From positions 1-45,484 of the forward strand of contig JBFMDD010000018.1 in NCBI GenBank assembly GCA_040754115.1: a stretch of DNA of 45,484 bases, read 5' to 3'. The DNA is from a bacterium. GTDB taxonomy: Bacteria; UBA9089; CG2-30-40-21; SBAY01. Below the pieces are notes generated by a model, which searched no databases, was not told the DNA's origin, and was given only the letters and a program-made list of their open reading frames with translations. Position numbers and translations under genes: made by a program. This document shows, in pieces, positions 6,069-39,861 of this stretch (positions within the stretch are counted from its first letter, which is position 1; each line of letters begins with the position of its first letter).

Positions 6069-6105
6069 AGAAGTAGCCAGTGGAGAGAAAGGAGGATAAG
6101 TTTAA

Positions 6106-7647
6106 GTGAAATACCACCAAATAGAACCTGATATTAGTGATGAAGAATTCTTATTATTCCAAAACTTTATATTACAAAATAGTGGTATATTTATAGATGA
6201 GGCTAAACGAGACCAATTAAGAAGAGCCCTGTTATCTCGAACTACATTTATGAATCTCACTGGATATGCTGATTACTATAAATTTTTGAAATATAACCCA
6301 AGAGGAGAAGAGGAATTTAAAGAATTACTTAACTTAATTACCATAGGTGAAACATACTTTTTCCGTGATGCAAAACATTTTAACACACTGCGTAAGCATG
6401 TATTGTTAGAAATTATCAAAAGAAAACAGTCTGCGGGTAATAGGGGTATTAAAATCTGGTCTGCAGGCTGTTCTACTGGTGAAGAGCCTTATTCGATTGC
6501 TATTACTTTGTTAGAAAGCCTACAACCTATACAGATGTGGGATGTGGAAATATTAGCTTCAGATGTTAGTACCAGGGCATTAAAGACAGCTCAGGAAGCG
6601 GAATATTCCAAATGGTCTCTCAGGTCTACTAATAGAAGTTACATTGAGAAATACTTTATTCAGGAAGGTAAAAAATTTACTCTAAAAGATGAAATCAAAA
6701 AGATGGTAAATTTTGAGTTTTTTAATCTTATCAAAGAACCATTTCCTCTGTCTAAAATGGGTGATTATTGGGACATCATCTTTTGCAAAAATGTAACTAT
6801 CTACTTTAAACCTGAATCTACAAAACGGGTAATAAGTAATTTTTATAACAGTCTACAAAAAGAAGGTTACCTATTTATTGGTGCTTCAGAATCTCTATAT
6901 CATATATCAAGTGAATTCAAATTATTAGAAATAGAGGGGAACTTTATATATCAAAAACCAGTTGAGGAAATCGTTAAAAAACCAGTTGAAGACCAAAAAG
7001 TAGTTATAGAAAAGATTACTCCGCCAACAAAATTACCCAAAAAACCTAAAAAGGTTGATGAGTTAAAAAAAGAAGTAGAAGAAATTAAACAAAAAGCAAA
7101 AGTTCCATCTGATGATAAAAAAATAGATGAATTATATAAAACTGCTCAATATTATTTTGAGGAAGATATGTTTGAAAAGGCATTATTTGAATTGATGAAG
7201 ATAATTGAGCTCACGGATGAACATTCTGAAGCCTTTCTTATGTTAGCAGATATTTATGCCAATAAAGAGCAATTTGATGATGCAGAAAGGGAATGTCGTA
7301 AGGCATTGCAACTTAATTCATTACTCTCGCCTGCTCATTTCCTTTTAGGTATCATCCTTAACAAGAAGGGGAAAATAGAAGAAGCCATTAATGAATTTAA
7401 GAAAACTATCTATTTAGACCCTAATTTCCCTTTAGCCCACTTTAACCTCGCCAATATCTACTATGAAAACAGAGACTATCAAAAAGCTACAACACAATAT
7501 AAGGCGACGATAGATATATTGAATAAAAATACAGATATCCCTGCTAAAATTAGTGGTGGGTTCTCAAAAAATATCCTAATCCAAACATGCCAGCGAAAGA
7601 TAGAAAAGATAGAAGAGGAAACTTCAAAACGGTTCACTTTAATGTGA
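6106..7647 (+). CDS. cheR: Chemotaxis protein methyltransferase CheR with a C-terminal TPR domain
   Basis: ETYFFRD and IWSAGCSTGEEPYS SAM-MTase motifs, a Lys/Glu-rich linker, and TPR-like repeats (ADIYANKEQFDDAERECRKALQLN..., ANIYYENRDYQKA). GTG start with an AAGGAGG RBS. The last 6 codons and the TGA fall inside MITE-B-derived sequence. Confidence 0.88.
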   Translation: MKYHQIEPDISDEEFLLFQNFILQNSGIFIDEAKRDQLRRALLSRTTFMNLTGYADYYKFLKYNPRGEEEFKELLNLITIGETYFFRDAKHFNTLRKHVLLEIIKRKQSAGNRGIKIWSAGCSTGEEPYSIAITLLESLQPIQMWDVEILASDVSTRALKTAQEAEYSKWSLRSTNRSYIEKYFIQEGKKFTLKDEIKKMVNFEFFNLIKEPFPLSKMGDYWDIIFCKNVTIYFKPESTKRVISNFYNSLQKEGYLFIGASESLYHISSEFKLLEIEGNFIYQKPVEEIVKKPVEDQKVVIEKITPPTKLPKKPKKVDELKKEVEEIKQKAKVPSDDKKIDELYKTAQYYFEEDMFEKALFELMKIIELTDEHSEAFLMLADIYANKEQFDDAERECRKALQLNSLLSPAHFLLGIILNKKGKIEEAINEFKKTIYLDPNFPLAHFNLANIYYENRDYQKATTQYKATIDILNKNTDIPAKISGGFSKNILIQTCQRKIEKIEEETSKRFTLM

Positions 7648-7789
7648 AAGATTGCGATTAAAAAATGGATATGAAATTAGAAATTAGAAATTAGAAATTA
7701 GGGAAAGAAGTGAAGACCTAATTTCTAATTTCCAATTTCAGTGTGGATATCCAAAAGAAATCATAGGAAAAACGATAAGATGAACCGTC
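7628..7789 (-). mobile_element. Truncated MITE family B copy (reverse orientation) bridging cheR and the yfhO-like gene
   Basis: Aligns with the copy at 22440-22602: AAACGGTTCACTTTA..GTGAAAG.TTGCG.TTAAAAAATGGA, then the (GAAATTA)n hairpin, then GGAAAAACGATAAGATGAACCGTC. Both outer termini are missing. Confidence 0.7.
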
Positions 7790-10074
7790 TCGAAAATGTA
7801 TTAGCAATTTTTATATTACTTTTACTCTTATCTATCTTCTTTTGGAAGGCTATTACTCTACAAGGGCTGTGGGTAACTGGTGAGTTTAGCCTGTCGGATA
7901 TTACAGAGCTTAATTTCCCACTTAAATATTTACTTTATGACTCATTACAAAAATTTTCACTTCCGTTATGGACTAAAGACCTGCTATGTGGCTATCCTGC
8001 ATTTGCAGAAGGAGAAGGTGGACATTTATATCCGTTGAATCTACTTCTTTTTTCTTTCCTGCCTCCATTAGCAGCATTTAATTACAGCCTTATTATCTCT
8101 TATTTATTAGCTGGATTTTTTACATATCTATTTGCCCGCAAGATTAAATTAAGTTGGTATTCCTCACTAATTAGTGGAATTATCTTTATGTTTTCTGGCT
8201 TTTTAGTTACTCATCTTAAACATCCATCTATGATTTCAGCCTGCTCTTTAATGCCTCTTTTGTTTTATCTTGTAGAGTGCTATTGGGGTCAGATTGGTTT
8301 GACCCCTTTAATTCTGGCTGGTGTTATCTTTGGCTTACAAATATTAGCAGGACATCAACAAATAACGGTTTATTCCATGGTTGGGGTAAGTTTATACTTT
8401 TTATTCAGATTTTTAATAACATTATTTATTGAAAATTATTCTCAGCCTAAAAAAAGGAGAAAAACAAAAAAACTCAATAAATTGAGGAAGCCATTTAAAG
8501 ATACAAGTCTAAAACTTGCATTCTTTACCTTAATAATCATTATTGGGCTTGGTATAGGAGCAGTCCAAATTCTACCTACCTACGAGCTTTCAAATCATTC
8601 CTATCGGTCAGCGGAAATAGGATTTGAAAATATTGTAAGATTCCCTTATCCTCCAAAACATCTAATCACATTTATCAAACCATATTTTTATGGTGATCCA
8701 GGTGAAGGAACATATTCTATACCAGGTGAAGAATGGGGTTTTTTCTGGGAAAATACAGGTTATGTAGGAATATTACCGTTAATTCTCTCACTAATTGGGA
8801 TAACCTTTATTTTTCTTAGAAATAAAAAGGCATCATTTTCTCCTGCAAATATCTTATCCAGTAACCAACACATTATCTTCTTTTCTTTTTTATTGATTTT
8901 TTCAATCCTGCTGGTATTAGGCAAATATGGTCCACTATTTCCTTTACTTAAGTTACCTGTTTTATCTACATTTAGATTTCCTGCACGATTTTTGATGTTA
9001 GTAGATTTCTCATTGGCTATCTTGACTGCATTTGGAATAGAGGTTTTATTGAATAAGGTTAAATTCAAGAAGATAATCAAATGTTGTATTCTGCCTATTA
9101 TTGTAATTGATTTATTTATCTTTGGGCTGAAATTTAATCCTACTATTTCACCTAAACTATGGTTTGAAAAACCTGAATCTGTAAAGTTTTTAGAAAAAGA
9201 TAAAAGCATATATAGAATTTATAGTCTTGGGGCAGAAGCGACCTGGAGTCATGTATATTTCAGTATAAGTCATGGCTGGCGAAAGAACCTGTTACCTTAT
9301 CTAAAACATCGAGAGATATTGGCAGTTAATTCCAATCTACTTCATGGAGTCTCAAATGCAGATGCCTATTTCCCACTTCTGCCTTTAAGACCATGGATGT
9401 TTAAAAAATTTATAGAACAAAATATTAATTTTGATAATCGTCGAGGAATAGCCATTATTCCACCACATCTAATGAAGATAATGAGTATGTTAAATATAAA
9501 CTACATCCTTTCATTTTATCAAGTTGAAAATGAGAAATTAGATTTAGTTAAAACAATTGATGTAGGAGAAGGATTGCCACCATTAAAGATTTATAAAAAC
9601 CATAGTTGTCTTCCAAGGGCATTTTTAGTACCAACTACAAGAGTAGTTTCTGATGCGAATAAGATTATCCAGGAGCTAACAAAAGAGGATTTTGAGCCTA
9701 AAAAGGAAGTAATTGTAGAAAAAGAAATTCCTCATCCCTCATCCCTCATCCCTCATCCCTCGTCCCTTGTTGAGATTGTAACTTACCAATCTAACAAAGC
9801 CATACTTAATGTTTCTTCCCCTACTGATTGTATTCTATTTATGAGCGATACTTATTATTCTAGCTGGAGAGTATTTATAGATGGAGTTGAAGGAGAGATA
9901 TTTCCTGCTAATTTAGGATTTAGAGGAGTTGCTTTAAGTAAAGGAGAGCATGAAGTAAAATTTGTTTACAAACCAAAGGCATTTAAAATAGGCTTAATTA
10001 TCACTTTGATAACCATCTTATTGCTCATTAGTTACTCTGGCGGCGTTATACTAAAACTGAAGGATAAATTTTAA
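7780..10074 (+). CDS. YfhO-family polytopic membrane protein (putative glycosyl-transfer / glycopolymer-modifying protein)
   Basis: Many TM segments. The C-terminal block FIDGVEGEIFPANLGFRGVALSKGEHEVKFVYKPKAFKIGLIITLITILLL resembles YfhO C-termini. I prefer ATG 7780 (MNRLENVLAIF...) over GTG 7741 because 7741-7779 is MITE sequence. Confidence 0.75.
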   Translation: MNRLENVLAIFILLLLLSIFFWKAITLQGLWVTGEFSLSDITELNFPLKYLLYDSLQKFSLPLWTKDLLCGYPAFAEGEGGHLYPLNLLLFSFLPPLAAFNYSLIISYLLAGFFTYLFARKIKLSWYSSLISGIIFMFSGFLVTHLKHPSMISACSLMPLLFYLVECYWGQIGLTPLILAGVIFGLQILAGHQQITVYSMVGVSLYFLFRFLITLFIENYSQPKKRRKTKKLNKLRKPFKDTSLKLAFFTLIIIIGLGIGAVQILPTYELSNHSYRSAEIGFENIVRFPYPPKHLITFIKPYFYGDPGEGTYSIPGEEWGFFWENTGYVGILPLILSLIGITFIFLRNKKASFSPANILSSNQHIIFFSFLLIFSILLVLGKYGPLFPLLKLPVLSTFRFPARFLMLVDFSLAILTAFGIEVLLNKVKFKKIIKCCILPIIVIDLFIFGLKFNPTISPKLWFEKPESVKFLEKDKSIYRIYSLGAEATWSHVYFSISHGWRKNLLPYLKHREILAVNSNLLHGVSNADAYFPLLPLRPWMFKKFIEQNINFDNRRGIAIIPPHLMKIMSMLNINYILSFYQVENEKLDLVKTIDVGEGLPPLKIYKNHSCLPRAFLVPTTRVVSDANKIIQELTKEDFEPKKEVIVEKEIPHPSSLIPHPSSLVEIVTYQSNKAILNVSSPTDCILFMSDTYYSSWRVFIDGVEGEIFPANLGFRGVALSKGEHEVKFVYKPKAFKIGLIITLITILLLISYSGGVILKLKDKF
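9730..9764 (+). repeat. Heptanucleotide array (CCTCATC x4 + CCTCGTC) inside the yfhO-like CDS
   Basis: Read directly. It is translated as IPHPSSLIPHPSSL. Confidence 0.9.
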
Positions 10075-10144
10075 CATGGATAAAATCAAACTTTGGGCGG
10101 TTTACTTAGAAATAGAATGAAGCTGAAAAGCGGTGGGTATTGTC

Positions 10145-10522
10145 GTAACCGTTCAGGTAGCTAAGAATTTTGCAGTTTATCAGGTTCAAGGTTCCATGTT
10201 CAGGGTTCAAGGTTACTAATCGATAAAGATTATACTGGACACTGCCATTAACTGAGCTATTTAGGGACGGTTTATTTTCATCGTTTTCACGGTGATTTCT
10301 TTTGGAAATTAGAAATTGGAAATTAGGTCTTCACTTCTTTCCCAAATTTCTAATTTCATATCCATTTCTTAACCGCAAGCTTTCACGCTAAAGTGAACCG
10401 TTTCTAAAATCGCAATTTGTAACGGTGTTGAGTATAAATGAATCCTTACAAACAGCTAAGCAAATCAACTCAGGAGCACACACCCAACCCTGAACCTTGA
10501 ACCGGGAACCCTGAACGGTTAC
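10145..10522 (+). mobile_element. MITE family A (termini GTAACCGTTCAGG / CCTGAACGGTTAC) carrying a nested MITE B
   Basis: The two halves (10145-10230 and 10437-10522) are collinear with the uninterrupted 170-bp copy at 15625-15794. The termini are inverted repeats and the arms contain (AGGTTCA)n heptamers. Confidence 0.8.
10231..10436 (+). mobile_element. MITE family B (206 bp; termini TATACTGGACAC / GTGTTGAGTATA) nested in MITE A
   Basis: Near-identical to 17409-17614. The filled site AAAGAT-TA-[element]-TA-AATGAA compares with the empty site AAAGATTAAATATC in the 15625 copy, suggesting a TA target duplication. Confidence 0.8.
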
Positions 10523-10651
10523 ATTTTTTCTTCGTGGTCTCCTAATCCTGTCAGGAACAAGCTTCGTGCCCTTCGTGGTTTATCTTAATTGCACAGGTCG
10601 AATTTTTTCTTCTCTGCGTCTCTGCGGTGAACAGTTACCTTTTTCACTTGT

Positions 10652-13213
10652 TTACACCAACCTGACAACCTCTTCCATCAGGTCTTTAAAATCAAACGGT
10701 TTAAAAAGATAAGTGGTTGCTCCTGCTTTATAAATCTTATCTAAATTTTGCTCTTCATCTACCGGGACTAACATAATAAGTGGAATTTCTTTTGTCTCTT
10801 CATGGTCTCTTAATATATGTGCCATTTCATAGCCATCTACCTTCGGTACTCTAAGACTGAATATTATCAAATCTGGTTTTTCCACATATAGTTTCTCTAA
10901 TGCCTCTACACCATCTTTAGCTGTCTTAACTCTGTACCCATTTGTTTTTAAATATAATTCTGAGAGTTTTAATACCTCCAGGTTATCATCTACAATTAAA
11001 ATTATTGTTTGATGAGGTGGTTTTTTCTTACTTAATCTTATCTTTGGCAGTTCTTCTTCTGGGACTTCTTCTTTTGGTATAGTAAATATAAACTTACTGC
11101 CTTTACCTACTTCTGATTCTACTCTGATAGTTCCATTAGACTCATCAAGTATTTCTTTTACTATTGCTAATCCCAGCCCTGTACCTTCATATGAGCGTGT
11201 ATCTGACATATCTAATTGATAGAACCTATCAGTTATCTTATCAAAATTCTCCTTTTTAATACCAATTCCTGTATCTTCAACACAGCCTTGTAGGTATTTA
11301 CCTTTATCTTCAAGTCTGATAGTTACTTTCATTTTAGTATCCTTCTTATCCTTCTTAATAAATTTTATAGCATTATCCACCAATTTACTAAGAATCTCCT
11401 TTGCTCGCTCTTTATCATACATAACAATAGGGATATTTGGATCTACTTCTGATTGAAGTACAATCTTCTTTTCTTGAGATTGAGGGGTAAAGATAAGTAT
11501 TACTTCTTCTACTATCTTTTTAAAATCTACCGGTTGTTTTTTTAATTCGTATTTTTTACCTCGTTCAATCTTAGACAGGTCTAAAATATCTCCAATTAAT
11601 TCATTTAAGTGTTTACATTTTTCTAACATTATGTCAATACCTTTTATTTGCTCATCAGTAATTTCACCTAATGCCTTATAAGAAAGTAGTTGCAGATAGC
11701 CCATGATAACAGTAAGAGGGGTACGTAATTCATGTGAGACAATATTTAAAAAGGTAGATTTAGCCTCATTAGCTATCTGTAACTCCTCGGTCATTTTCTT
11801 TAATTCTATCACCTTCTGTTTCAATTCATCATAAAGTTTGGTATTTTCTAATGCTACAGATATTTCACCAGCTAAAGAAGAAAGGAATGTCAAATCTTCT
11901 TTGTCATACGGTTTACCAGCAAATTTATCACCTAAGTTTAAGATACCTAATAATTCCTCTTTATAAAATAAAGGAACAGATACTGTTGCCCCTAATTTTT
12001 TTAGTTGAGCTAATAACTCACTACGTTCTTCCAACTCCCTACTTTCTCGTATCTCTTCTTTAAGTAATTCCCGTTTTTCTGTTTTAAACCATTTTACTAC
12101 TGGATGGGTTATTTTAAGTATATCACGATGTCCTACCTCACCTACTTCAAATTCACGCCTGAATATCCCTTCTCTTTCATTCAGAAGCATCACAGATGCT
12201 CCATCAAGATGCATGGTTTGTACAATCGACTTCATGATAGGAGGTAATAATACATCCTTATCAACAGTGGTAGTAAGCATCATACCAACTTTTTTCAGAA
12301 ACTCCTGTTGGTCAAATCGCTCACGGAAGAAGTGCTTATCAACTATCAATTGAATTTTTTCACGCAGTGGTTGGAAGATAATGGTTACTATTGCTACAGC
12401 TATTACTGTCCCCATGAATGCCTCATAGCCAGTAGTGTATCTAAAAGTCCTTTCGAGGAAGACTATAGTTGAGACCAAAACAGTAGTCAAAGCCCCAGTC
12501 AATGTAGTATAAACAAATCCCTTACGAATAATTATATCAATCTCCATTAGGCGATACTTGAAGATAGCATAAGCAAAAATTGCCATACAGTAGGCAATAG
12601 TTAAATGAGCTATTGGATATACTTCAACTCCAGCAACAAGAAGTACATTAGAAATTCCACCTCCTATACCTACACATCCACCCATAGCTATGTATTTAAA
12701 TCTATTTTTAATCCCTGGATTTTTTGTAGTTATATATTTCTTGTACAAGAGATAAGTACCATAACCTATAAAAAAGAAAAGGCTTAATGGAAATAAAAAA
12801 TAAAATTTTCCTGCTATTGGAAAGTAAAAATGTCCAAATTCATAATAAGTGAAATCTTTAAATAATAAACCTGTCCAGTTAATGATTAAAAGAAGTGAAC
12901 TATAGATATAAGCAATTATAATTAAAAATTTCTTTCTTTTACTATAAAACTTGGTTAACAAAACTGCAGTGTGAAAAGAAGCTGGTGGTATAAAAATTAG
13001 ACCTGTATAGAATATATAACCCAAAAGGAAGACCAATTCTTTAGTGAGAACAAATGAAAAAGTAAAAGCGGTAAAACACCAAATTGTTACGCAGAAACAT
13101 AGTAATGAAAATACTCTATTCATTTCTTTCTTAGGATTTTTAATAAAAACAAATACTGTTAAAGATAGATTAATAAAAGTAGCTATTAATGTTGTCAAAA
13201 TATAAGGTGTCAT
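10652..13213 (-). CDS. Hybrid sensor histidine kinase (N-terminal multi-TM sensor, GAF, HisKA, HATPase, C-terminal receiver)
   Basis: 853 aa with about 7 hydrophobic helices at the N-terminus. H-box FLNIVSHELRTPLT, N/G boxes LVDNAIKF, DTGIGI and GTGLGLAIV, and a C-terminal REC (ILIVDDN...). It starts 42 nt downstream of the PocR-GGDEF-KAS ORF. Confidence 0.88.
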   Translation of the reverse strand: MTPYILTTLIATFINLSLTVFVFIKNPKKEMNRVFSLLCFCVTIWCFTAFTFSFVLTKELVFLLGYIFYTGLIFIPPASFHTAVLLTKFYSKRKKFLIIIAYIYSSLLLIINWTGLLFKDFTYYEFGHFYFPIAGKFYFLFPLSLFFFIGYGTYLLYKKYITTKNPGIKNRFKYIAMGGCVGIGGGISNVLLVAGVEVYPIAHLTIAYCMAIFAYAIFKYRLMEIDIIIRKGFVYTTLTGALTTVLVSTIVFLERTFRYTTGYEAFMGTVIAVAIVTIIFQPLREKIQLIVDKHFFRERFDQQEFLKKVGMMLTTTVDKDVLLPPIMKSIVQTMHLDGASVMLLNEREGIFRREFEVGEVGHRDILKITHPVVKWFKTEKRELLKEEIRESRELEERSELLAQLKKLGATVSVPLFYKEELLGILNLGDKFAGKPYDKEDLTFLSSLAGEISVALENTKLYDELKQKVIELKKMTEELQIANEAKSTFLNIVSHELRTPLTVIMGYLQLLSYKALGEITDEQIKGIDIMLEKCKHLNELIGDILDLSKIERGKKYELKKQPVDFKKIVEEVILIFTPQSQEKKIVLQSEVDPNIPIVMYDKERAKEILSKLVDNAIKFIKKDKKDTKMKVTIRLEDKGKYLQGCVEDTGIGIKKENFDKITDRFYQLDMSDTRSYEGTGLGLAIVKEILDESNGTIRVESEVGKGSKFIFTIPKEEVPEEELPKIRLSKKKPPHQTIILIVDDNLEVLKLSELYLKTNGYRVKTAKDGVEALEKLYVEKPDLIIFSLRVPKVDGYEMAHILRDHEETKEIPLIMLVPVDEEQNLDKIYKAGATTYLFKPFDFKDLMEEVVRLV

Positions 13214-13255
13214 TTTGATACTCCAATTATTAATAGTTATTAATAAACTATGGAA

Positions 13256-15595
13256 TTAGCTCTCATTGTATCGGCTGAATACCAATATAGAATTCTTACC
13301 ACCAAACCCAAATGTATTTGATACTGCAATATTTATATTAATTTTCCGACCAACGTTAGGTACATAATCCAAATCACATTCTGGGTCAGGATATTCATAG
13401 TTTATAGTAGGTGGTATAAAACTATTTTCTATTGCTAATGCACATACTATTGCTTCAATTGCTCCTGCTGCTCCTATTGAATGACCAAGTATAGACTTAG
13501 TAGAACTTACAGGTATCTCATATGCATGATCACCAAATATCTTCTTAATAATCATTGTTTCTATTTTATCATTTAAAGGTGTAGAAGTGCCATGTGCATT
13601 AATATAATCTACTTCTTCTGGTTTGATTCCCGCATCTATTAAAGCTAGGTTAATTGCTCTTATAGCTTCTACTCCAGAAGGATCAGGTGCAGTTATATGA
13701 TAAGCATCTGTAGTAGTACTATAACCAATTACTTCACTATAAATATGTGCATTTCTATTCAAGGCATGTTCCAGTTCTTCTAAGATTACAATTCCTGCTC
13801 CTTCTCCCGCGACAAATCCACTTCGTTTTATATCAAAAGGTCGACTTGCACTTTCTATTCCAGTAGTCCCAGAGACTAAAGCTCCCATTGCATAGTATGA
13901 GCTTAAGATAAATGGTTTGATAGTTACTTCTGTTCCTCCTACAATTGCCAATTTACCTTTTCCTTCTCGTATATTATTAAATACTTCTCCAATAGCATCA
14001 GTTCCTGCAGTGCAACCTGTAGAGATTGTCATCGCAGGCCCTTTTAATTTTAATTCTAAAGAGATCATTGAAGAAATCGCTCCAGTAAAAATAGCTAATG
14101 AAGCAAAAGGACTTATTCTATCAGCTCCATCTCTTAAGAACTTTTTCATTTGATCTTCTCCAAAACTCAATCCTCCTATTGTTGATCCAATAGTAACTTG
14201 ACTTTCAGTCATCTCCTCTTTAGAAATATCTAATTTAGCATCTTCAACAGCCATTTTAGCTGCGGCAATAGCAAATTGTGTAGTTCTATCAGTGCGTTTT
14301 ATAGTTTTAAAATCCATATATTTTACCGGGTCAAAATCCTTCACCTCTGCTGCTATTTGAACTGGTAAATTTGACGGGTCGAAGGAGGTAATTCTACCTA
14401 TGCCTGATTTGCCAGTACTAATTGCCTGCCAGAATACCTCCTTACCTATTCCTACCGGTGAGATAATTCCTATTCCTGTAATTACTACCCGCGGTTTATG
14501 AGGTCTTTTTGTATATATAGTAACAACTTTACCTCCTCCCTCTTTTTTACTAATTAGCAACTTCTCCATTGCATTTTTGATTAATCCTTGACTATTAGAT
14601 ACACTCTTTGTAATATTTGCAATTCCAATGCTTATGCTTAAAGAAAGATTTAACCTATCTTCCTTACCGAAGATATAGTTTTTTACTTTTAATTGTAAAT
14701 CTTTAGCTAATATATCTATTTCCTCTTTAGTGCCTTTTAAAATAATCCCAAATATATCTCCCTCATATCTACCACCTACTGCATCTTTAGGTAAATTTTC
14801 TCTTACCATATTTGCCAGTTCCTTAATAATTCTATCACCAACAAATAGTCCATAGGTATTTTTTATCGAACTAAAATTATCTATATCAATCATAATGAGT
14901 GCTAAAGGTTGATTTTGACTTTTTGCTATCAGTATTTCTTCATCAAGACAATCTAAGAATGTATTTTTAGTCAAAAAAGAGGTTAATTCATCAACTTTGA
15001 GTAACTCTTCCATCTCTTTTAGTAAATTATATAAATACTGGCTTTTTTCAAAAAGATGGTAATAATTAATCATCCCCTCCTTTATTGTATCTATCCTTGG
15101 TTTTAACATCTGGTTGAGCAAGACTATATCTTCATCAGATACTATTTTAATCTCTTGAATATAGTTAATTAGTGCTTTTGTATCTATACCAAGTTCTTTA
15201 GCATATTTTTTATATTGTTGTAAATCAGGAGATTTATCTAATATTCCACCAATTACAATAGTGGCTAATGGGATATCTCCAATAGCTATAGGGATAAATA
15301 GATTAGTTAATCCTGCATGGCACTTGAATAGACAAAGGCCTTTTTTAATTACCTCCTTCCCAAAGCAGCTATTTAAATAAAATGACTTACATCTTTTATA
15401 GCCTGATTTAGAGCTTTGAACTAATTGACAAAATTTAGATGAATGTTGTCGCTCTGAAACAAACTTCCCACTTGGCTCTATAATTTGAATACCAACGCCA
15501 ATAGTTTTCTCACAGACATCCTCTAAGTATTCCCAGCTATTAAATAAGCCAATTAGGTTTTTAAAATGCTCTAACTCTGATTGATTTATTTTCAT
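13256..15595 (-). CDS. Fusion protein: PocR-like sensor domain + degenerate GGDEF domain + complete beta-ketoacyl-ACP synthase II (FabF-type)
   Basis: aa 1-170 carry a PocR-type Cys pattern (KFCQLV, YKRCKSF, LFKCHAGLTN). aa ~200-360 are GGDEF-like with RYEGDIF (14750-14770) in place of GGDEF/GGEEF. aa ~369-779 are a KAS II with VVITGIGIISPVG, active-site TISTGCTAG, NAHGTSTPLND, LGHSIGAAGA and a C-terminal FGFGGKN. A single uninterrupted ORF. Confidence 0.85.
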   Translation of the reverse strand: MKINQSELEHFKNLIGLFNSWEYLEDVCEKTIGVGIQIIEPSGKFVSERQHSSKFCQLVQSSKSGYKRCKSFYLNSCFGKEVIKKGLCLFKCHAGLTNLFIPIAIGDIPLATIVIGGILDKSPDLQQYKKYAKELGIDTKALINYIQEIKIVSDEDIVLLNQMLKPRIDTIKEGMINYYHLFEKSQYLYNLLKEMEELLKVDELTSFLTKNTFLDCLDEEILIAKSQNQPLALIMIDIDNFSSIKNTYGLFVGDRIIKELANMVRENLPKDAVGGRYEGDIFGIILKGTKEEIDILAKDLQLKVKNYIFGKEDRLNLSLSISIGIANITKSVSNSQGLIKNAMEKLLISKKEGGGKVVTIYTKRPHKPRVVITGIGIISPVGIGKEVFWQAISTGKSGIGRITSFDPSNLPVQIAAEVKDFDPVKYMDFKTIKRTDRTTQFAIAAAKMAVEDAKLDISKEEMTESQVTIGSTIGGLSFGEDQMKKFLRDGADRISPFASLAIFTGAISSMISLELKLKGPAMTISTGCTAGTDAIGEVFNNIREGKGKLAIVGGTEVTIKPFILSSYYAMGALVSGTTGIESASRPFDIKRSGFVAGEGAGIVILEELEHALNRNAHIYSEVIGYSTTTDAYHITAPDPSGVEAIRAINLALIDAGIKPEEVDYINAHGTSTPLNDKIETMIIKKIFGDHAYEIPVSSTKSILGHSIGAAGAIEAIVCALAIENSFIPPTINYEYPDPECDLDYVPNVGRKININIAVSNTFGFGGKNSILVFSRYNES

Positions 15596-15624
15596 TCTCT
15601 TTCATCTTATATTATTCTTCTTTT

Positions 15625-15794
15625 GTAACCGTTCAGGTAGCTAAGAATTTTGCAGTTTATCAGGTTCAAGGTTCCAGGTTCAGGGTTCAAGGTTACTAAG
15701 CGATAAAGATTAAATATCAAATCCTGACAAACAGCTAAGCAAATCAACTCAGGAGCACACCCCCAACCCTGAATCTTGAACCTTGAACGGTTAC
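15625..15794 (+). mobile_element. MITE family A, uninterrupted 170-bp copy
   Basis: GTAACCGTTCAGGTAGCTAAG...(AGGTTCA-type heptamers x5)...CTTGAACGGTTAC. It serves as the empty-site reference for the nested copies at 10145 and 23869. Confidence 0.8.
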
Positions 15795-15855
15795 CTCTTT
15801 TTTAGAGGATAAATCCTCTACTCTATTAAAGTTATCGAGCGAAGCAAGATTTTTC

Positions 15856-16317: not shown

Positions 16318-17355
16318 TCACACTTCATTCTTCAAATACTTTGCTGCATCTTCTGGTGGAGTTGGGTTAATAAAGAATCCAGAGCCCCACTCAAATCCAG
16401 CTATATCAGTCAATCGTGGTATTAATTCAATATGCCAGTGGAAATGTTTAAGTTCATCACGGTTAATTTTACACGGTGCAGTATGAAGCATGTAATTAAA
16501 AGGTGGGTTATTAAGCACCTTATCTACCTTTTTGATAATTCCACCTAACACTTCTGCTAATGCCATTACTTCATGTCTTGTAATATCAGGAAATGTTGGG
16601 TCATGTACCTTAGGTAAAATCCAACATTCAAATGGAAATCTGGATGCAAAAGGAGTAATAGCAATAAAATCATTATTTTCCATTATTACCCGTTCTTGGG
16701 AATTTTGTTCTTCACGGATAATATCACAAAATACACACCTATCTTTATATTTAAAATGCTGGAATGCAAAATCCATCTCCTCTCGCACATTTGAAGGTAC
16801 AATAGGAGTAGCAATCAACTGAGAATGAGGATGCTCTAAAGAAGCACCAGCTTTAACTCCATGATTTTTGAATATAAGGATGTATTCAAATCTTGGATCA
16901 CGATTTAGGTCAATTGACCTATCTCTATATGCCCAGAGTATTTCTTCTACTTGTGAAAGCTCAAGTGAATCAAAATCTAATGTGTGCTTTGGAGTTTCAA
17001 TAATCACCTCATGTGCTCCAGTACCACTTATCATATCAAACATACCTATCCCTATTTTCTCCAGTTTACCTTCTATCTGCAAGGCAGGAAATTTATTAGG
17101 TACTACCCGTAACCACCAATCAGGGGTATTAGGTTGACTACCAGGTTTTCTATAGGCTAATATCTCAGGTGGTGTTTTAGATTCATTCCCTTCACAAAAA
17201 GGACAGTTATTAACTGAAGAACTATTAGTCTCTTCGTTCTTAAGTTCTTTAGTTTTTGAGTTCTTTAGTTCATAAAAATCTGATGGTCTTTTCGCTCGCT
17301 CCGTAGCGATAATTACCCACCGATTACTTACAGGGTCTTTGCGTAACTCTGGCAT
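16318..17355 (-). CDS. galT: Galactose-1-phosphate uridylyltransferase-type (HIT-superfamily) nucleotidyltransferase
   Basis: 345 aa. It has LRKDPVSNRWVIIATERAKRP, the zinc motif CPFCEGNE and the active-site HPHSQ (SLEHPHSQLIATP). Confidence 0.85.
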   Translation of the reverse strand: MPELRKDPVSNRWVIIATERAKRPSDFYELKNSKTKELKNEETNSSSVNNCPFCEGNESKTPPEILAYRKPGSQPNTPDWWLRVVPNKFPALQIEGKLEKIGIGMFDMISGTGAHEVIIETPKHTLDFDSLELSQVEEILWAYRDRSIDLNRDPRFEYILIFKNHGVKAGASLEHPHSQLIATPIVPSNVREEMDFAFQHFKYKDRCVFCDIIREEQNSQERVIMENNDFIAITPFASRFPFECWILPKVHDPTFPDITRHEVMALAEVLGGIIKKVDKVLNNPPFNYMLHTAPCKINRDELKHFHWHIELIPRLTDIAGFEWGSGFFINPTPPEDAAKYLKNEV

Positions 17356-17408: not shown

Positions 17409-17614
17409 TATACTGGACACTGCCATTAACTGAGCTATTTAGGGACGGTTTATTTTCATCGTTTTCACAGTGATTTCTTTTGGAAATTAGAAATTAGGTA
17501 TTCACTTCTTTCCCCAATTTCTAATTTCTAATTTCATATCCATTTTTTAACCGCAAGCTTTCACGCTAAAGTGAACCGTTTCTAAAATCGCAATTTGTAA
17601 CGGTGTTGAGTATA
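17409..17614 (+). mobile_element. MITE family B, full-length copy (206 bp)
   Basis: TATACTGGACACTGCCATTAACTGAGC ... GTAACGGTGTTGAGTATA. Near-identical to 10231-10436 apart from the number of central GAAATTA/AATTTCT heptamers. Confidence 0.8.
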
Positions 17615-17665
17615 ACTTAGTATATCAGAAATTGTTTAAAATGTCAACATTTTTAATTTTTTCTC

Positions 17666-17860: not shown

Positions 17861-18850
17861 ATGCCTGGTAAAGGAATTATTTATAAAGGACCTCTTCCTA
17901 AAAAGGTAAAAACAAGTCCAAAGACTAAAAAAATAAAGGAATTAATTGATGAAATTCCTCAAGCAATTCCTGAACAGACACAAAAAGAGGCATTAAAAAC
18001 AGTAGAACATGTTATCAGTAATGTAAGGATAGGAAAGGCTATCGAAGAAGAACCACTAAAGAAGGTAATAAAGCAAATGGCAGAGGAGATTATTTCTAAT
18101 CAGGATGCGATGTTAAACTTGATAAAAATCAAGTCTCATGATGAATATACCTTTGCTCATTCGACTAATGTCTGTACTTTAGCGATTTTGCTTGGGGTAA
18201 GACGCGAATTTAAGAAAGCTGAAATTGAAGAAATCGCTTTAGGTGGAATACTGCATGATATTGGTAAGGTGAAAATTTCAGAAGAGATACTACTTAAACC
18301 TACTAAATTAACTATAAAGGAATATGAGGAGGTAAAAAAACATCCTATTTATGGCTATGAGATTTTAAATGAAAATAGTAAGTTGTCTCAACTTACAAAA
18401 TTAATTGCCTATCAACATCATGAACGCATGCAAGGTAAAGGTTACCCGCAAGGACTATCAATAGATGAGGTGCATCCAGCAGTTAGACTAATTGCTTTGG
18501 TCAATCTGTATGATTCTTTGACCACTGATAAACCCTATCGAAGTAAATTTTTACCTCATGATGCGATGCGAATTATTATTAGCCAATCAGGTAGTAACTT
18601 CTCAGTAGAGGATGTAAAGAAATTTGTAGATGATATGTCTATTTATCCCGTGGGTAGTTTTGTACGACTTAATACTGGAGAGATAGGAGTAGTGACTAAG
18701 ATAAATAGACATGCAGTAATAAGACCTTATGTTAAGATATTGCTTAATGCCAAAAAGGATATTTTGTATAAGCCTTTTGAGATTAATTTATTTAAAGATA
18801 AAGATAGATTTATTGTAAATTGTGTAGGGGAAGAGGTGTTGTTTGAATAA
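17861..18850 (+). CDS. HD-GYP domain protein (predicted c-di-GMP phosphodiesterase)
   Basis: HSTNVCTLA, GGILHDIGK and YQHHERMQGKGYPQGL motifs. Confidence 0.88.
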   Translation: MPGKGIIYKGPLPKKVKTSPKTKKIKELIDEIPQAIPEQTQKEALKTVEHVISNVRIGKAIEEEPLKKVIKQMAEEIISNQDAMLNLIKIKSHDEYTFAHSTNVCTLAILLGVRREFKKAEIEEIALGGILHDIGKVKISEEILLKPTKLTIKEYEEVKKHPIYGYEILNENSKLSQLTKLIAYQHHERMQGKGYPQGLSIDEVHPAVRLIALVNLYDSLTTDKPYRSKFLPHDAMRIIISQSGSNFSVEDVKKFVDDMSIYPVGSFVRLNTGEIGVVTKINRHAVIRPYVKILLNAKKDILYKPFEINLFKDKDRFIVNCVGEEVLFE

Positions 18851-18851
18851 A

Positions 18852-19475
18852 ATGAAGTTAATTTTAGTTCGTCATGGTGAATCTACCTGGAATAAGTTAA
18901 AAAGAATACAGGGGGCAAAAAACCCTCGATTAAGTGATAAGGGAATTAAGCAATCACAACTATTAGCTAATCGATTTAATGAGATGAGATTTGATGCAGT
19001 TTATAGCAGTCATTTAAACCGTGCTTACCAAACCGCTAAGATTTTAATTAACTCTAATACCCATATTTGTATCATTGAAGACCTGCAAGAGATTAAATTA
19101 GGTGTCTGGGAAGGTAAAACGATAGACCAGGTGAGTAAAGAGTATAAAGAAATATATGATAAATGGTATCAAAAACCATTAGAGGTAAAGATACCTGGTG
19201 CAGAAACAATATTAGAATTTAAAAACCGTGTAGTAAGAACTATTGATGGAATTAAGAGACAACATCCCGGGCAGGAGGTACTTGTAGTTACACATGGTGG
19301 CGTGATTAGTATTTATTTAGCTCATTTATTAGAGATGAATTTAAACAAGGTCTGGTCAATCTCACTTAAAAATGGTTCAGTAACAATCATAAGTTTTTAT
19401 GAAGAGTTTCCTTCTGTGTTACTATTTAACGATACCTGTCATCTGGATTCTGAAGAAGATTTGGTTACTTGGTAA
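18852..19475 (+). CDS. Histidine phosphatase family protein (phosphoglycerate mutase-like)
   Basis: MKLILVRHGESTWN (RHG catalytic motif) and a later THGGV. I prefer ATG 18852 over the TTG at 18843. Confidence 0.85.
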   Translation: MKLILVRHGESTWNKLKRIQGAKNPRLSDKGIKQSQLLANRFNEMRFDAVYSSHLNRAYQTAKILINSNTHICIIEDLQEIKLGVWEGKTIDQVSKEYKEIYDKWYQKPLEVKIPGAETILEFKNRVVRTIDGIKRQHPGQEVLVVTHGGVISIYLAHLLEMNLNKVWSISLKNGSVTIISFYEEFPSVLLFNDTCHLDSEEDLVTW

Positions 19476-19623: not shown

Positions 19624-21072
19624 ATGAATTTAAAACAAGCTAATGAGTTAGCCTGGTTAAAGGAAAAGTATCCTGAGATGGATGTGGACAAGTTTGATCA
19701 AATTCGACAAAAATATCTAAATGGTGAATTGGAAGTAGTCTACGATGAGCAAATTCAATCGTTAAAGGGAACAAAGTATATGAGTTCCTATGAGGAATTG
19801 CCAGCCATTGAAGAACAAAATGGACTCCCTAAAGGCTACTTCCACAATAGAGGAGTTGAATTAGGAAGAAATAGCAAATTAGGTATGATAGTGTTAAATG
19901 GTGGTGTGGCTACATCGTATGAAAAGGAATTGGGCTATCGACCGACTAAAGGCATATTTCAAGCAATTATGTACACACCTATCAGTTTTATTGCTATCAA
20001 ACTCCATTCGATTTATCAATATCAAAAGGAAGGGATATTTATACCAACATATTTTATGAACAGTCCTGCTACTGATAAAGATACCAGAGACTACCTTGAA
20101 AAATTTAATAATTTTAATCTAAAAATCAAGCCAAAACATTTCTGCCAGGATTTAGGTTGGCCAAGAATCGACCCGCAAACAGGTAGCTTAATTACCCGCA
20201 AAAGTGGTAGAGTAAGCGTGGTTACCAAAGGGCATGGTGATGTGTATCAGGCATTTGATAAAAGTGGACTTTATGATGAATTTGTAGATAAAGGTGGAGA
20301 GGTGCTTTTAATTTGTAATATTGATAACTCAGAGGCAAAAATAGATATGGCTATTGCAGGTTACTTCTCATGGCTTAATGAAACACAAGGAGTACAAATA
20401 ATGTTTGAATCTGCCCCACAACTCCAAGATGACAAAAAGGGAGGAAAATGCGTATTGATGAAAAGACCTGATGGGAATATGGGGCCTGGAATATTAGAAC
20501 TAACTCGGATTTCACCCAACCTGCATGATGACTTGCAAAATATACAAGAATTTAATACCAATATGTGTTGGTTACATACCTCAATTGATAGAAGGTTATT
20601 TGATTTACCGTTCCGGGTGGTAAAAAAAACCCGCTTGAGTGATGTTGATGACCCGGAAATCAGTAAGAGTGGCGATGAGCAGGTAATACAATTTGAACAT
20701 GAGTCCCATAAACTAATGGAACTTGTAGAGTTAGGTCATTCACATGTGCTTTTAGTCCCACGAGATTTACGATTCTGGCCTAATAAATACTTCCATGACC
20801 AGATTAAAAAACAAAAACAATTAGTTGAAAAGTATAAAGAGCTGTATGATTGGATGTTTGAATTAAATCCCAAGGCTAATGAAAGTATCCTACAAGTCAA
20901 GGATGAATTGCTAAAGCAACTGGGGTTTGAAAAAGAAATTGTAACTTCGAGAATAAAGATTAGAGGATTAGAAGATAAGAGAGTAGAGAATCTTAGGTGT
21001 ATCGGGACAGTTCACTTTTGTTTGAAAGCTTGCGGAAAGAAAAGAGAGTTGAAATTGAAAGGTAGAAATTAG
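19624..21072 (+). CDS. UDPGP-family (UTP-hexose-1-phosphate uridylyltransferase-like) protein; the C-terminal ~40 codons read through repeat DNA
   Basis: Motifs VLNGGVATSY, KGHGDVYQAF and CNIDN resemble eukaryote-type UGPase/UAP family signatures. From about 20950 the ORF runs into heptamer and MITE-B-like sequence (..GTVHFCLKACGKKRELKLKGRN). Confidence 0.6.
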   Translation: MNLKQANELAWLKEKYPEMDVDKFDQIRQKYLNGELEVVYDEQIQSLKGTKYMSSYEELPAIEEQNGLPKGYFHNRGVELGRNSKLGMIVLNGGVATSYEKELGYRPTKGIFQAIMYTPISFIAIKLHSIYQYQKEGIFIPTYFMNSPATDKDTRDYLEKFNNFNLKIKPKHFCQDLGWPRIDPQTGSLITRKSGRVSVVTKGHGDVYQAFDKSGLYDEFVDKGGEVLLICNIDNSEAKIDMAIAGYFSWLNETQGVQIMFESAPQLQDDKKGGKCVLMKRPDGNMGPGILELTRISPNLHDDLQNIQEFNTNMCWLHTSIDRRLFDLPFRVVKKTRLSDVDDPEISKSGDEQVIQFEHESHKLMELVELGHSHVLLVPRDLRFWPNKYFHDQIKKQKQLVEKYKELYDWMFELNPKANESILQVKDELLKQLGFEKEIVTSRIKIRGLEDKRVENLRCIGTVHFCLKACGKKRELKLKGRN

Positions 21073-21208
21073 AAATTAGAAAATTGGCATAGAATTAGAA
21101 GTTTTTCTTTCCATTTTCATACAAATGGATATCCGAAAGAAACCATAGGAAAAACGATAAAATAAACCGTCCCGGTGTATCTTTTAACCAGACTACCTGA
21201 ACTGTTAC
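21004..21208 (-). mobile_element. Degenerate MITE B-like copy followed by a family-A-type right terminus (CCTGAACTGTTAC)
   Basis: GGGACAGTTCACTTTTGTTTGAAAGCTTGCGG...(GAAATTA)n...GGAAAAACGATAAAATAAACCGTCCC aligns with family B in reverse orientation. The terminal CCTGAACTGTTAC is at 21196-21208. Confidence 0.55.
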
Positions 21209-22410: not shown

Positions 22411-22439
22411 TTGACAATATGGTAATTTAGATGTAAAAT
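22411..22439 (+). promoter_or_regulatory. Promoter candidate for hisI (TTGACA - 17 nt - TAAAAT)
   Basis: -35 at 22411-22416 and -10 at 22434-22439. It is immediately followed by a complete MITE B, which would form the 5' UTR. Confidence 0.45.
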
Positions 22440-22602
22440 TATACTCAACACTGTTACAAATTGCGATTTTTAGAAACGGTTCACTTTAGCGTGAAAGCTT
22501 GCGGTTAAAAAATGGAGTTGAAATTGGAAAGTAGAAATTACATGGAAAACGATGAAAATGAACCGTCCCTAAATAACTCAGTTAATGGCAGTGTCCAGTA
22601 TA
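22440..22602 (-). mobile_element. MITE family B, reverse orientation (163 bp), in the hisI leader
   Basis: TATACTCAACACTGTTACAAATTGCGATTTTTAGAAACGGTTCACTTTAGCGTGAAAGCTTGCGG...CAGTTAATGGCAGTGTCCAGTATA is the reverse complement of the 10231 and 17409 copies. Confidence 0.8.
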
Positions 22603-22628
22603 TCTTTAATCAAGGAGATGGAAACAAA

Positions 22629-23852: not shown

Positions 23853-23868
23853 AAAGGGAATTATACTT

Positions 23869-23971
23869 GTAAGCGTTCAGCTAATAATTTTGCAGTTTAT
23901 CAGGTTCTAGGTTCAGGGTTCAAGGTTCAAGGTTCAAGGTTCAAGGTTCAAGGTTACTAAGCGATAAAGAT
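23869..23971 (+). mobile_element. MITE family A left half (GTAAGCGTTCAG...) with an expanded heptamer array (8 units); right half absent
   Basis: Collinear with 15625-15711 and 10145-10230, but with 8 rather than 5 AGGTTCA-type units (23902-23957). It is followed by a MITE B at the same internal junction as in the 10145 copy. Confidence 0.7.
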
Positions 23972-24267
23972 TATACTGGACACTGTCATTAACTGAGCTA
24001 TTTAGGGACAGTTTATTTTCATTTTCATCGTTTTTCACGGTGATTTCTTTTGGAAATTGGAAATTAGAAATTGGGGGACGGTTCATTTTCATCGTTTTTC
24101 CTGTGATTTCTTTTGGATTTTAGGAATTGTTCATGGAACGCTGAAATTGGAAATTAAACTTTCACTGCTCTCCCCAATTTCTAATTTCATATCCATTTTT
24201 TAACCGCAAGCTTTCACGCTAAAGTGAACCGTTTCTAAAATCGCAATTTGTAACGGTGTTGAGTATA
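23972..24267 (+). mobile_element. MITE family B copy with an internal partial duplication (296 bp)
   Basis: The termini TATACTGGACACTGTC ... GGTGTTGAGTATA are as in the other copies. The segment GGGACGGTT.ATTTTCATCGTTTTTC..GTGATTTCTTTTGGA occurs twice. Confidence 0.75.
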
Positions 24268-24323
24268 ATTATTTTTCGTGTAATTCGTGTCATTCGTGGT
24301 TCAAAAGTATTTTCAGGAGAATT

Positions 24324-31868: not shown

Positions 31869-31909
31869 AATTTTAATCCTTACCTTTGTTATCACTGGTA
31901 AATTTTTAT

Positions 31910-31965
31910 CTCTCTACTCTCTACTCTCTACTCTCTACTCTCTACTCTCTACTCTCTACTCTCTA
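31910..31965. repeat. Heptamer array (CTCTCTA x8; TAGAGAG on the coding strand) spanning the stop of the upstream rSAM gene and the gap before the next
   Basis: Counted directly as eight exact units. The stop codon (31949-31951) and the last ~5 codons (..VESRE) of the 31949-33106 ORF lie inside the array. Confidence 0.92.
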
Positions 31966-39848: not shown

Positions 39849-39861
39849 ATATAAAGGCAAT

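Follow-up and report, generated by a model that had tools for sequence, protein, structure and literature searches.

A FabF-type ketosynthase fused to PocR and degenerate GGDEF domains and encoded beside a 7TM sensor kinase: a candidate signal-gated condensing enzyme

Results

A ketosynthase gene fused to signaling domains

Contig JBFMDD010000018.1 (NCBI GenBank assembly GCA_040754115.1; GTDB lineage Bacteria, UBA9089, CG2-30-40-21, SBAY01) was analyzed over positions 1 to 45,484, a 45,484-nt stretch of DNA that we refer to as the window. On its minus strand, at positions 13256..15595, a single open reading frame (ORF) encodes a PocR sensory domain, a signaling helix, a degenerate GGDEF domain (GGDEF*), a short linker, and a FabF-type ketosynthase (KS), as assigned using Pfam and TIGR03150. 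A first-pass annotation, made by reading the DNA alone, had described an uninterrupted ORF of 779 aa that fuses PocR, a degenerate GGDEF carrying RYEGDIF, and a full KS. Our analysis bears this out: the ORF begins with ATG and runs without interruption over 779 aa, the motifs quoted in the annotation are present, and Pfam returned significant matches for PocR (residues 28–164, E 2.7e-25), GGDEF (residues 201–354, 6e-27), ketoacyl-synt (residues 369–611, 6e-45), and Ketoacyl-synt_C (residues 619–734, 7e-38). The linker between the GGDEF* and KS domains (residues 355–368; 14492..14533, minus strand) was modeled with a pLDDT below 50 and is short in every family member aligned. The GC content stays at 0.32–0.33 throughout the gene, so that the base composition is even, junctions included.

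The same four domains were found by a word-indexed search in eight other full-length proteins at 42–72% identity, which originate from independent JGI, NCBI, and Logan assemblies, Candidatus Desantisbacteria among them. When 1.84 billion cluster representatives were searched exhaustively with a profile, seven further full-length fusion representatives came to light and none beyond these. The fusion family, as the term is used here, thus comprises 16 cluster representatives (clustered at 50% identity), namely the window protein and its relatives, drawn from JGI, NCBI, ENA, and Logan assemblies; nine members make up the alignment from which invariant columns were read. Related proteins and loci are referred to by the numbers given to them in this study (P0002, L001, and so on). 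Among the matches listed in a genome scan, L008 is the only species-representative genome carrying the full fusion. The N-terminal half and the KS co-diverge, their identities to P0002, P0003, and P0004 being 76/68%, 64/62%, and 37/64%, respectively. By these comparisons, the fusion of PocR, GGDEF, and KS is real but rare. In the databases, the fusion proteins carry the plain label "beta-ketoacyl-ACP synthase II" (ACP, acyl carrier protein). Our literature search found no paper on a KS fused to PocR, GGDEF, PilZ, or REC, none on such a KS paired with HisKA_7TM kinases, and no report of a KS serving as an output domain; papers outside the library searched may exist. The first-pass impression that this architecture had not been described agrees with its rarity and with the literature searched.

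The partner sensor kinase and the two-gene unit

Next to the fusion gene lies a gene for an 853-aa sensor kinase (10652..13213), whose Pfam matches are HisKA_7TM (residues 8–225; 12539-13192), GAF (residues 320–457; 11843-12256), HisKA (residues 484–552, with His494; 11558-11764), HATPase_c (residues 600–715; 11069-11416), and Response_reg (residues 738–849; 10667-11002), all on the minus strand. As the first-pass annotation had noted, this gene starts 42 nt downstream of the fusion gene on the same strand. The intervening spacer, from the fusion stop to the kinase start (13214..13255, minus strand), is AT-rich and contains a GGAG ribosome-binding site, and no terminator-like site was found within its 42 nt. 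The two genes are likely cotranscribed, judging from this arrangement.

The kinase had been called a hybrid histidine kinase, a description that stands for the kinase part and fails for the receiver. The H-box SHELRTP is intact, with His494, and the HATPase_c match is strong (E 2.3e-26), but the receiver has Ser786 (Asn in L001 and L007) in place of the phospho-acceptor Asp and Val816 in place of Thr/Ser, a state seen in 5/5 orthologs, while Lys838 and the fold are kept. These substitutions mark the domain as a conserved pseudo-receiver, and because it is a pseudo-receiver in all five orthologs, the kinase is not a canonical or phosphorelay hybrid. Kinase genes adjoin the KS gene in L001, L002, L005, and L007, with 73, 55, 57, and 69% identity to the window kinase, respectively; the kinases are orthologous, and their divergence tracks that of the KS.

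The N-terminal half resembles a sensor-controlled diguanylate cyclase with a dead active site

Structure prediction with AlphaFold2 was attempted first on the full-length protein. That model was poor (pLDDT 61, with the KS part below 50), as the underlying alignment has nine rows, and Foldseek searches with it returned FabF matches only. The N-terminal half was therefore remodeled alone, which gave a pLDDT of 83.

The PocR domain (residues 28–164; 15104..15514, minus strand; PF10114 E 2.7e-25) scores 89.4 bits against a gathering score of 23.9, and the motifs KFCQLV, YKRCKSF, and FKCHAGL are all found in it. Cys56, Cys69, Cys77, Cys92, and His93 are invariant in the nine-member alignment and near-invariant among the 16 members. 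The domain was modeled as an alpha/beta domain with block pLDDT values mostly of 73–95. A sequence search found no solved PocR structure, and a Foldseek search with the N-terminal model was dominated by GGDEF matches and gave no clear structural neighbor for PocR. According to Anantharaman and Aravind 2005, as cited in PMC5847659, PocR is predicted to sense simple hydrocarbon derivatives. The Cys4-His set might instead bind a metal rather than a hydrocarbon-type ligand.

In the model, PocR is joined to GGDEF* by a continuous 45-residue helix of the signaling-helix/coiled-coil type (residues 154–198; 15002..15136, minus strand). The top full-length Foldseek matches of the N-terminal half were the sensor-coiled-coil-GGDEF cyclases 6ET7/5LLW (phytochrome-activated PadC). 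The fold of the degenerate GGDEF domain (residues 201–354; 14534..14995, minus strand; PF00990 6e-27) is intact, its model matching the active cyclase 3IGN with a TM score of 0.92 and an rmsd of 1.6 Å in Foldseek. The first-pass annotation had raised the question of an I-site-like or nucleotide pocket in this domain. Aligned with 3IGN, the window protein retains the fold, the DID that binds metal, and Asn245 and Asp253, which contact guanine, but both the A-site and the I-site are lost. The sequence RYEGDIF (residues 276–282; 14750..14770, minus strand) replaces RxGG(D/E)EF, so that the A-site GGEEF of 3IGN reads EGDIF, the first Gly having changed to Glu and the catalytic Glu to Ile, and the RxxD of the I-site has become PKDA (residues 269–272).

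These changes can be followed across the family. The catalytic GG(D/E)EF is found in none of the 16 members (0/16). At the I-site, RxxD is present in 8/16 and RxxE in 4/16, and the motif is lost in the window subclade P0001–P0003 (PKDA, AEDV, and PEEI) and in P0005. From the sequences and the model, the N-terminal half has the full build of a sensor-controlled diguanylate cyclase whose cyclase site is dead in all family members, and GGDEF* has probably been noncatalytic ever since the family arose. Binding of cyclic di-GMP (c-di-GMP) at the I-site is plausible for some family members and not for the window protein. Gating by c-di-GMP, as the first-pass annotation had suggested, is unsupported for the window protein and unlikely for this copy, since its A-site reads EGDIF and its I-site RxxD has been lost to PKDA.

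The KS half keeps the FabF catalytic residues

The KS domain (residues 369–773; 13277..14491, minus strand) was delimited using TIGR03150 and alignment with Bacillus subtilis FabF (4LS5), to which it is 49% identical over the whole domain length. Against TIGR03150, the NCBIfam fabF equivalog, it scores 529.8 bits over model positions 2–406 of 407, a small margin above the cut-off of 493.75. It is closer to FabF (E 5e-123) than to the actinorhodin KS 1TQY (3e-84). The active-site residues Cys528 (14012-14014), His668 (13592-13594), and His705 (13481-13483), all on the minus strand, stand in the contexts TISTGC, INAHGTST, and LGHSIG, and Lys700 and FGFGG (residues 762–766) are kept. No family member departs from Cys528, His705, Lys700, or the GFGG loop, and His668 too is retained in the window protein. 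The domain keeps 54 of the 57 positions conserved in 41 ordinary FabF-like proteins. Its departures at conserved positions are F567Y, P580I, G615N, and a change of the RDGF Asp592 to Ser, and its active-site loop reads STGCTAGTDAIG versus TACATGT in B. subtilis FabF, with STGC in place of TAC(A/S). On these features, the KS half looks catalytically competent.

A number of relatives have Tyr for the first catalytic His, as part of a coupled swap of AHGTST for AYGN[SA]T (P0002, P0009, P0170, P0172, P0264, P0279, P0302, and P0315). The swap was found in all REC-KS and KS-SRPBCC sequences examined, in the PilZ-KS protein P0170, and in the two nearest relatives of the window protein, P0002 and P0009. 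The His-to-Tyr change is always paired with a Thr-to-Asn change two residues on, in several lineages, which looks like a rebuilt active site rather than decay and suggests an alternative active-site layout on the FabF scaffold.

In KS trees, which were built by neighbor joining only, all PocR-GGDEF*-KS proteins and most PocR-KS proteins fall into one clade, with the KS-only proteins P0009, P0011, and P0012 nested inside it. P0009 is a KS-only sister of the window protein, 76% identical. The possibility that P0009 is a split fusion gene was ruled out, because the fragment upstream of it is unrelated to GGDEF, and P0009 therefore represents genuine sensor loss. The nesting of KS-only forms within the PocR-linked clade indicates that the sensor module was lost repeatedly while the kinase partnership was retained.

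The fusion KS gene lies outside any fab or acyl carrier protein context

A search of the 45-kb window with domain models and an ACP motif found no ACP, fab, or polyketide synthase (PKS) partner gene, in agreement with the first-pass annotation. Across the window and eight related loci of the clade, an ACP-motif ORF was found in 0/9, anywhere in the locus. The sole ACP-motif hit, in L002, was discarded as it falls within an aspartyl-tRNA synthetase gene. The control set consisted of ordinary fabF loci with complete flanks in species-representative genomes, drawn from the matches listed in the genome scan; a same-strand ACP-motif ORF lies ≤1.5 kb upstream in 33/48 of them. Judged by what defines a type II PKS, namely a KS-beta/chain-length-factor partner and a dedicated ACP, no locus has either, and the KS gene is single in each. 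By its context, then, the fusion KS is not a fab-operon gene and not a housekeeping-type fabF. The first-pass description of a complete KAS II holds for the catalytic residues, but a housekeeping KAS II function is doubtful because neither the window nor any of the eight related loci offers an ACP or fab context.

A conserved module with interchangeable signaling heads

Synteny among homologs, proposed as a check in the first-pass annotation, is evident. A 7TM(-GAF) signaling protein, usually a kinase, stands beside the KS in 10 of the 11 related loci with genes listed. Within the PocR-linked clade, a HisKA_7TM(-GAF) transducer adjoins the KS in the window and in L001, L002, L003, L005, L006, and L007. 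The transducer of L003 is a 7TM-GAF-HD-GYP protein, the sensor part of which is 29% identical to the window kinase.

Accessory genes recur around this pair. A locus may have a PF04199 "cyclase," SRPBCC "Polyketide_cyc" proteins (one or two), and methyltransferases, which are either membrane enzymes of the ICMT/PEMT type (one or two) or of class I. One or more of these are present in L002, L003, L004, L005, and L008. SRPBCC and/or PF04199 cyclase genes were found in the same five loci and in L089 and L090, and in none of the window, L001, and L007, which are minimal versions consisting of KS and kinase only. A gene for an ICMT-family methyltransferase lies next to that of the condensing enzyme in L002, L003, L005, L088, and L091, and L006 encodes a methyltransferase and a FadL-type outer-membrane channel. 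NCBIfam gave no equivalog-level matches for the accessory genes.

The exhaustive search combined with Pfam also revealed other N-terminal heads on related KS domains, namely PocR-KS (610–646 aa), PilZ-KS (570–757 aa), and REC-KS (535 aa) proteins. A second homology search, started from a PilZ-KS query, returned about a dozen PilZ-KS clusters, dozens of REC-KS clusters (about 560 aa), and one KS-SRPBCC fusion; one REC-KS cluster is labeled Candidatus Omnitrophota. The REC of REC-KS proteins keeps the acidic pocket (DD), the phospho-acceptor Asp, the Ser/Thr, and the Lys. L088 encodes REC-KS, ICMT, a HisKA_7TM kinase, and REC; L091 encodes REC-KS, an ICMT-class-I methyltransferase fusion, a 7TM-GAF kinase, and two REC proteins; and L089 and L090 each encode PilZ-KS, SRPBCC, and a 7TM kinase. 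Because the loci repeat one pattern with different heads, the KS and the 7TM kinase are the constant parts and the KS-fused signaling domain is the variable one. Compared in this way, the window locus is a minimal form of a conserved module made of a [signaling domain]-KS protein and a HisKA_7TM(-GAF) protein.

Fusions also occur among the accessory functions. P0279 is a 617-aa KS with a C-terminal SRPBCC "Polyketide_cyc" domain, and L091 encodes, at 9703-11340, a 545-aa protein in which an ICMT-type membrane methyltransferase is fused to a class-I S-adenosylmethionine methyltransferase. The existence of the KS-SRPBCC and ICMT-class-I methyltransferase fusions implies that the accessory genes are functionally tied together.

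Two further observations concern the related loci. Small toxin-antitoxin genes (HicA/HicB, PhD/ParE-YoeB) recur in or beside the KS-7TM clusters (L005, 1257-1418; L006, 776-1212; L008, 519-1060; L091, 13620-14122). In L042 (2109-5275), from the high-GC metagenome-assembled genome of Bacillati bacterium ANGP1, query residues 190–778, from GGDEF through KS, matched over 3.1 kb; this match may represent separate GGDEF and KS genes or a different arrangement.

Other features of the window

Divergently upstream of the fusion gene lie a gene for an HD-GYP protein with intact HD..GK and HHE..GYP motifs (17861..18850, plus strand; Pfam and motifs) and, directly after it, a gene for a His_Phos_1 histidine phosphatase (18843-19475; Pfam). 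The pair is syntenic in the closest homolog locus, L001 (7713-9330). The HD-GYP protein may be a partner on the c-di-GMP side, its membership in the system being uncertain. In the window, a GalT/DUF4921-like gene (16318-17355) is inserted between the fusion gene and the HD-GYP/His_Phos_1 pair.

A Wsp-like set occupies 3560-7647 and consists of CheB (REC-methylesterase, 3560-4618), REC-GAF-GGDEF (4611-6068), and CheR-TPR (6106-7647). The REC-GAF-GGDEF protein has an intact RYGGEEF and an RxxD I-site, and the presence of this set with its intact RYGGEEF indicates that the organism has working c-di-GMP synthesis.

A family of intergenic repeats, about 90–210 nt long and 73–98% identical, was found at 7627-7795, 10100-10530, 15600-15800, 17409-17615, 21072-21173, 22439-22608, and 23867-24268. 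The repeats are rich in GGTTCAA/GGTTCAG-like heptamers, one copy contains a terminator-like hairpin (15749-15766), and by sequence they look like an element of the MITE/REP type. The KS-kinase pair is bracketed by direct repeats of this kind (88 nt at 98% and 69 nt at 93%). We considered these as boundaries of a mobile cassette and rejected the idea, as BLAST shows at least five more copies in the window.

Elsewhere, the plus strand at 7741-10074 encodes a polytopic membrane protein of 777 aa that contains the tandem peptide repeat IPHPSSLIPHPSSL and gives a weak YfhO C-terminal match. Ten fibronectin-III repeats occur in the 2200-aa protein encoded on the minus strand at 33327-39929, together with blocks of beta-propeller (PQQ_2/ACSF4-type) and domains resembling Ig and cadherin. 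This is probably a giant surface protein, and two radical-SAM genes (30759-33106) come after its gene. Rfam and tRNA scans of the window were empty.

Discussion

A candidate gated ketosynthase in a lipid and kinase circuit

We see about an even chance that the window protein is an accessory KS, gated post-translationally, which works within a circuit of a lipid metabolite and a 7TM kinase. The first-pass idea of a lipid or polyketide-like product under two-component control draws real support from the conserved 7TM, SRPBCC, ICMT, and PF04199 neighborhoods and from the REC-KS relatives.

KS enzymes are obligate dimers, and the GGDEF domains of genuine cyclases are positioned by their sensor through a helix. 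In the mechanism we propose, a small hydrophobic ligand would bind PocR and shift the signaling helix. The two GGDEF* domains, tied by linkers of about 14 residues, would then reseat on the obligate KS dimer, and their movement on or off the ACP-docking face would open or close the access of acyl-ACP and malonyl-ACP, thereby gating condensation. As no ACP is dedicated to it, the KS would rely on acyl-ACP and malonyl-ACP formed with the cell's own ACP and would make a beta-ketoacyl or short polyketide-like lipid, which in relatives could be cyclized by SRPBCC and PF04199 proteins and O-methylated by ICMT. The 7TM-GAF kinase would read the KS product or a membrane change that the product causes. 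In the REC-KS relatives, the kinase would probably feed back on the synthase directly through phosphorylation, and in the window, as pure speculation, the kinase pseudo-receiver may dock on GGDEF*, a split version of the REC-GGDEF pairing.

A bolder form of this proposal, which we offer tentatively and consider rather unlikely to hold in full, is a self-contained lipid-signal circuit. Here the KS would make a membrane-active or diffusible lipid sensed by the 7TM-GAF kinase, which in turn would control the synthase of its own ligand post-translationally, by phosphotransfer where the head is REC, by c-di-GMP where it is PilZ, and by pseudo-receiver docking in the window, with PocR as a second chemical input.

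Comparison with known systems

The C-terminal 410 aa of the window protein align end to end with FabF/KAS II (B. subtilis, 4LS5), the catalytic triad, Lys, and GFGG being present. Unlike FabF, the window protein has a 365-aa N-terminal signaling module, the STGC loop, and no fab/acpP operon, and its KS falls in a distinct clade, in which regulatory domains are swapped among members and the first catalytic His has often been replaced. The N-terminal half shares its layout of sensor, long helix, and GGDEF with PadC-type sensor-coiled-coil-GGDEF cyclases (5LLW/6ET7) and with degenerate-GGDEF receptors. It differs in that the cyclase site is dead in 16/16 members of the family and in that GGDEF* is not the protein terminus and is joined to an enzyme of lipid metabolism. 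Because of this position, GGDEF* is probably a mechanical relay rather than an output.

Loci pairing a type III PKS with an ICMT-like membrane methyltransferase, BpsA/BpsB and DquA/DquB, yield O-methylated alkylpyrones and alkylresorcinols (PMC9827899). The related loci L002, L003, L005, L088, and L091 likewise pair a condensing enzyme with an ICMT-family methyltransferase, whereas the enzyme of the window family is of the FabF type (Cys-His-His, ACP-dependent), is fused to signaling domains, and has a 7TM kinase as partner; the window itself has no methyltransferase gene.

Synthases paired with membrane sensor kinases are known from CqsA/CqsS (CAI-1) and PhcB/PhcS (3-OH fatty-acid methyl esters), the PhcB system including the methylation of a fatty-acid-derived product, and KS-made signals include dialkylresorcinols (DarB) and photopyrones (PpyS). 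As in CqsA/CqsS and PhcB/PhcS, a gene for an enzyme acting on hydrophobic molecules adjoins one for a polytopic membrane histidine kinase in the window, but both the enzyme families and the receptor family differ from those of the window pair. To our knowledge, HisKA_7TM-GAF has no known ligand. We know of no synthase of the CqsA, PhcB, DarB, or PpyS type that carries REC, PilZ, PocR, or GGDEF, and direct post-translational gating of a signal synthase would for this reason be new. Enzymes gated by fused receiver domains are familiar in other settings, such as the cellulose synthase BcsA with PilZ, and CheB, PleD, and WspR with REC. The REC-KS and PilZ-KS relatives follow this logic of a receiver plus a catalytic domain exactly, whereas the window protein uses PocR and a dead GGDEF in place of REC or PilZ.

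Weighing the alternatives

Several points count against a gated accessory KS. In L004, no 7TM protein adjoins the fusion. The window, L001, and L007 have none of the SRPBCC, methyltransferase, and cyclase genes; if the module exists to make a tailored metabolite, the window lineage either stops at the untailored product or no longer has the pathway. There is no evident ACP, thioesterase, or release enzyme, and the KS scores above the NCBI fabF equivalog cut-off and may still have a housekeeping role. Because the first catalytic His is replaced in P0002, P0009, and the REC and PilZ members examined, the chemistry of the group may differ from that of FabF, or some members may be inactive. The reliance on neighbor joining for the trees weighs on the same side. 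Beyond the anatomy, the whole explanation is inference.

The fusion protein could be a regulated housekeeping FabF devoted to membrane homeostasis, in which the 7TM-GAF kinase senses the state of the membrane as DesK does and the gated KS tunes acyl-chain length, by analogy with E. coli FabF, which sets cis-vaccenate levels. On this reading, the ICMT/PEMT and SRPBCC neighbors would modify phospholipids and carry lipids and would not be tailoring enzymes. We judge this alternative unlikely. The KS passes the TIGR03150 cut-off, is 49% identical to B. subtilis FabF, and keeps 54/57 of the conserved FabF-like positions; PF04191/PF04140 do include phospholipid methyltransferases; and a KS without a dedicated ACP must use that of fatty-acid synthesis. 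However, fab/acpP context is found in 0/9 loci versus 33/48 controls, and the clade is rare and patchy (about 16 representatives in 1.84 billion), unlike an essential enzyme. The catalytic His is changed in close relatives, and Omnitrophota, a phylum with a REC-KS protein, also has ordinary fabF genes. The KS-SRPBCC fusion and the PF04199 cyclases suggest a dedicated small-molecule pathway instead. At the opposite extreme, the KS could be noncatalytic and act in sensing or as a scaffold, for instance as an acyl-ACP sensor telling the kinase about the status of fatty-acid synthesis. We regard this as very unlikely. Tyr takes the place of the first catalytic His in the closest relatives and in the REC and PilZ members examined, the window has no tailoring genes, and its KS departs from the conserved pattern at F567Y, P580I, G615N, and Asp592 (Ser), but Cys528, His705, Lys700, and GFGG are family-invariant and His668 is kept in the window protein. 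Moreover, the coupled His-to-Tyr and Thr-to-Asn changes resemble a rebuilt active site, and the link to methyltransferase, cyclase, and SRPBCC genes implies a product.

Gating by c-di-GMP or GTP, with the degenerate GGDEF as a nucleotide receptor that switches the KS, seems quite unlikely for the window protein. RxxD is present in 8/16 family members and RxxE in four more, PilZ-KS fusions occur in a sister clade, and HD-GYP genes lie in or near the window (17861-18850), L001, L003, L004, and L006; the window also encodes a cyclase whose RYGGEEF is intact, and GGDEF* still has the guanine-contacting Asn245 and Asp253. Against these stand the loss of the I-site in the window protein and its two closest relatives (PKDA, AEDV, and PEEI), an A-site in which Glu for Gly and Ile for the catalytic Glu should prevent GTP/Mg binding, and the KS-only proteins P0009 and P0011, which do without any GGDEF domain. 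Finally, as the sequence stems from a metagenome-assembled genome, a PocR-GGDEF gene could have been joined to fabF artificially, through a chimeric assembly or an overlooked stop or frameshift. The chance of this is negligible: the uninterrupted architecture recurs in 16 independent representatives with a short linker of similar length, the base composition is even over the junctions, and the N-terminal half and the KS co-diverge. As 16 independent clusters share the architecture, a chimera or hidden frameshift is excluded as far as is possible without reads.

Implications

Control over the condensing enzymes that make fatty acids and polyketides is ordinarily exerted through transcription or the supply of substrate. 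In the family described here, a FabF-type enzyme is permanently joined to domains that receive signals and that are interchangeable across relatives (REC, PilZ, PocR, and PocR with a dead GGDEF), a module hidden by the database label "beta-ketoacyl-ACP synthase II." All of the domains are known; what is new is their combination as a putative signal-gated KS with a 7TM kinase, and the module as a whole stands a realistic chance of being a lipid-signal circuit of a new type. The set of KS, SRPBCC, ICMT methyltransferase, and PF04199 cyclase likely makes an unknown lipid or phenolic-lipid-like metabolite in phyla without cultured members. If the gating is real, the KS would join the direct outputs of two-component and c-di-GMP signaling, and the module would offer the first candidate ligand source for the orphan HisKA_7TM sensor family. 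If, in addition, the KS makes the ligand of the kinase that controls it, the KS would be a new class of output domain for two-component and second-messenger signaling, and autoinducer-like chemistry would extend to Desantisbacteria, Omnitrophota, and other uncultivated lineages.

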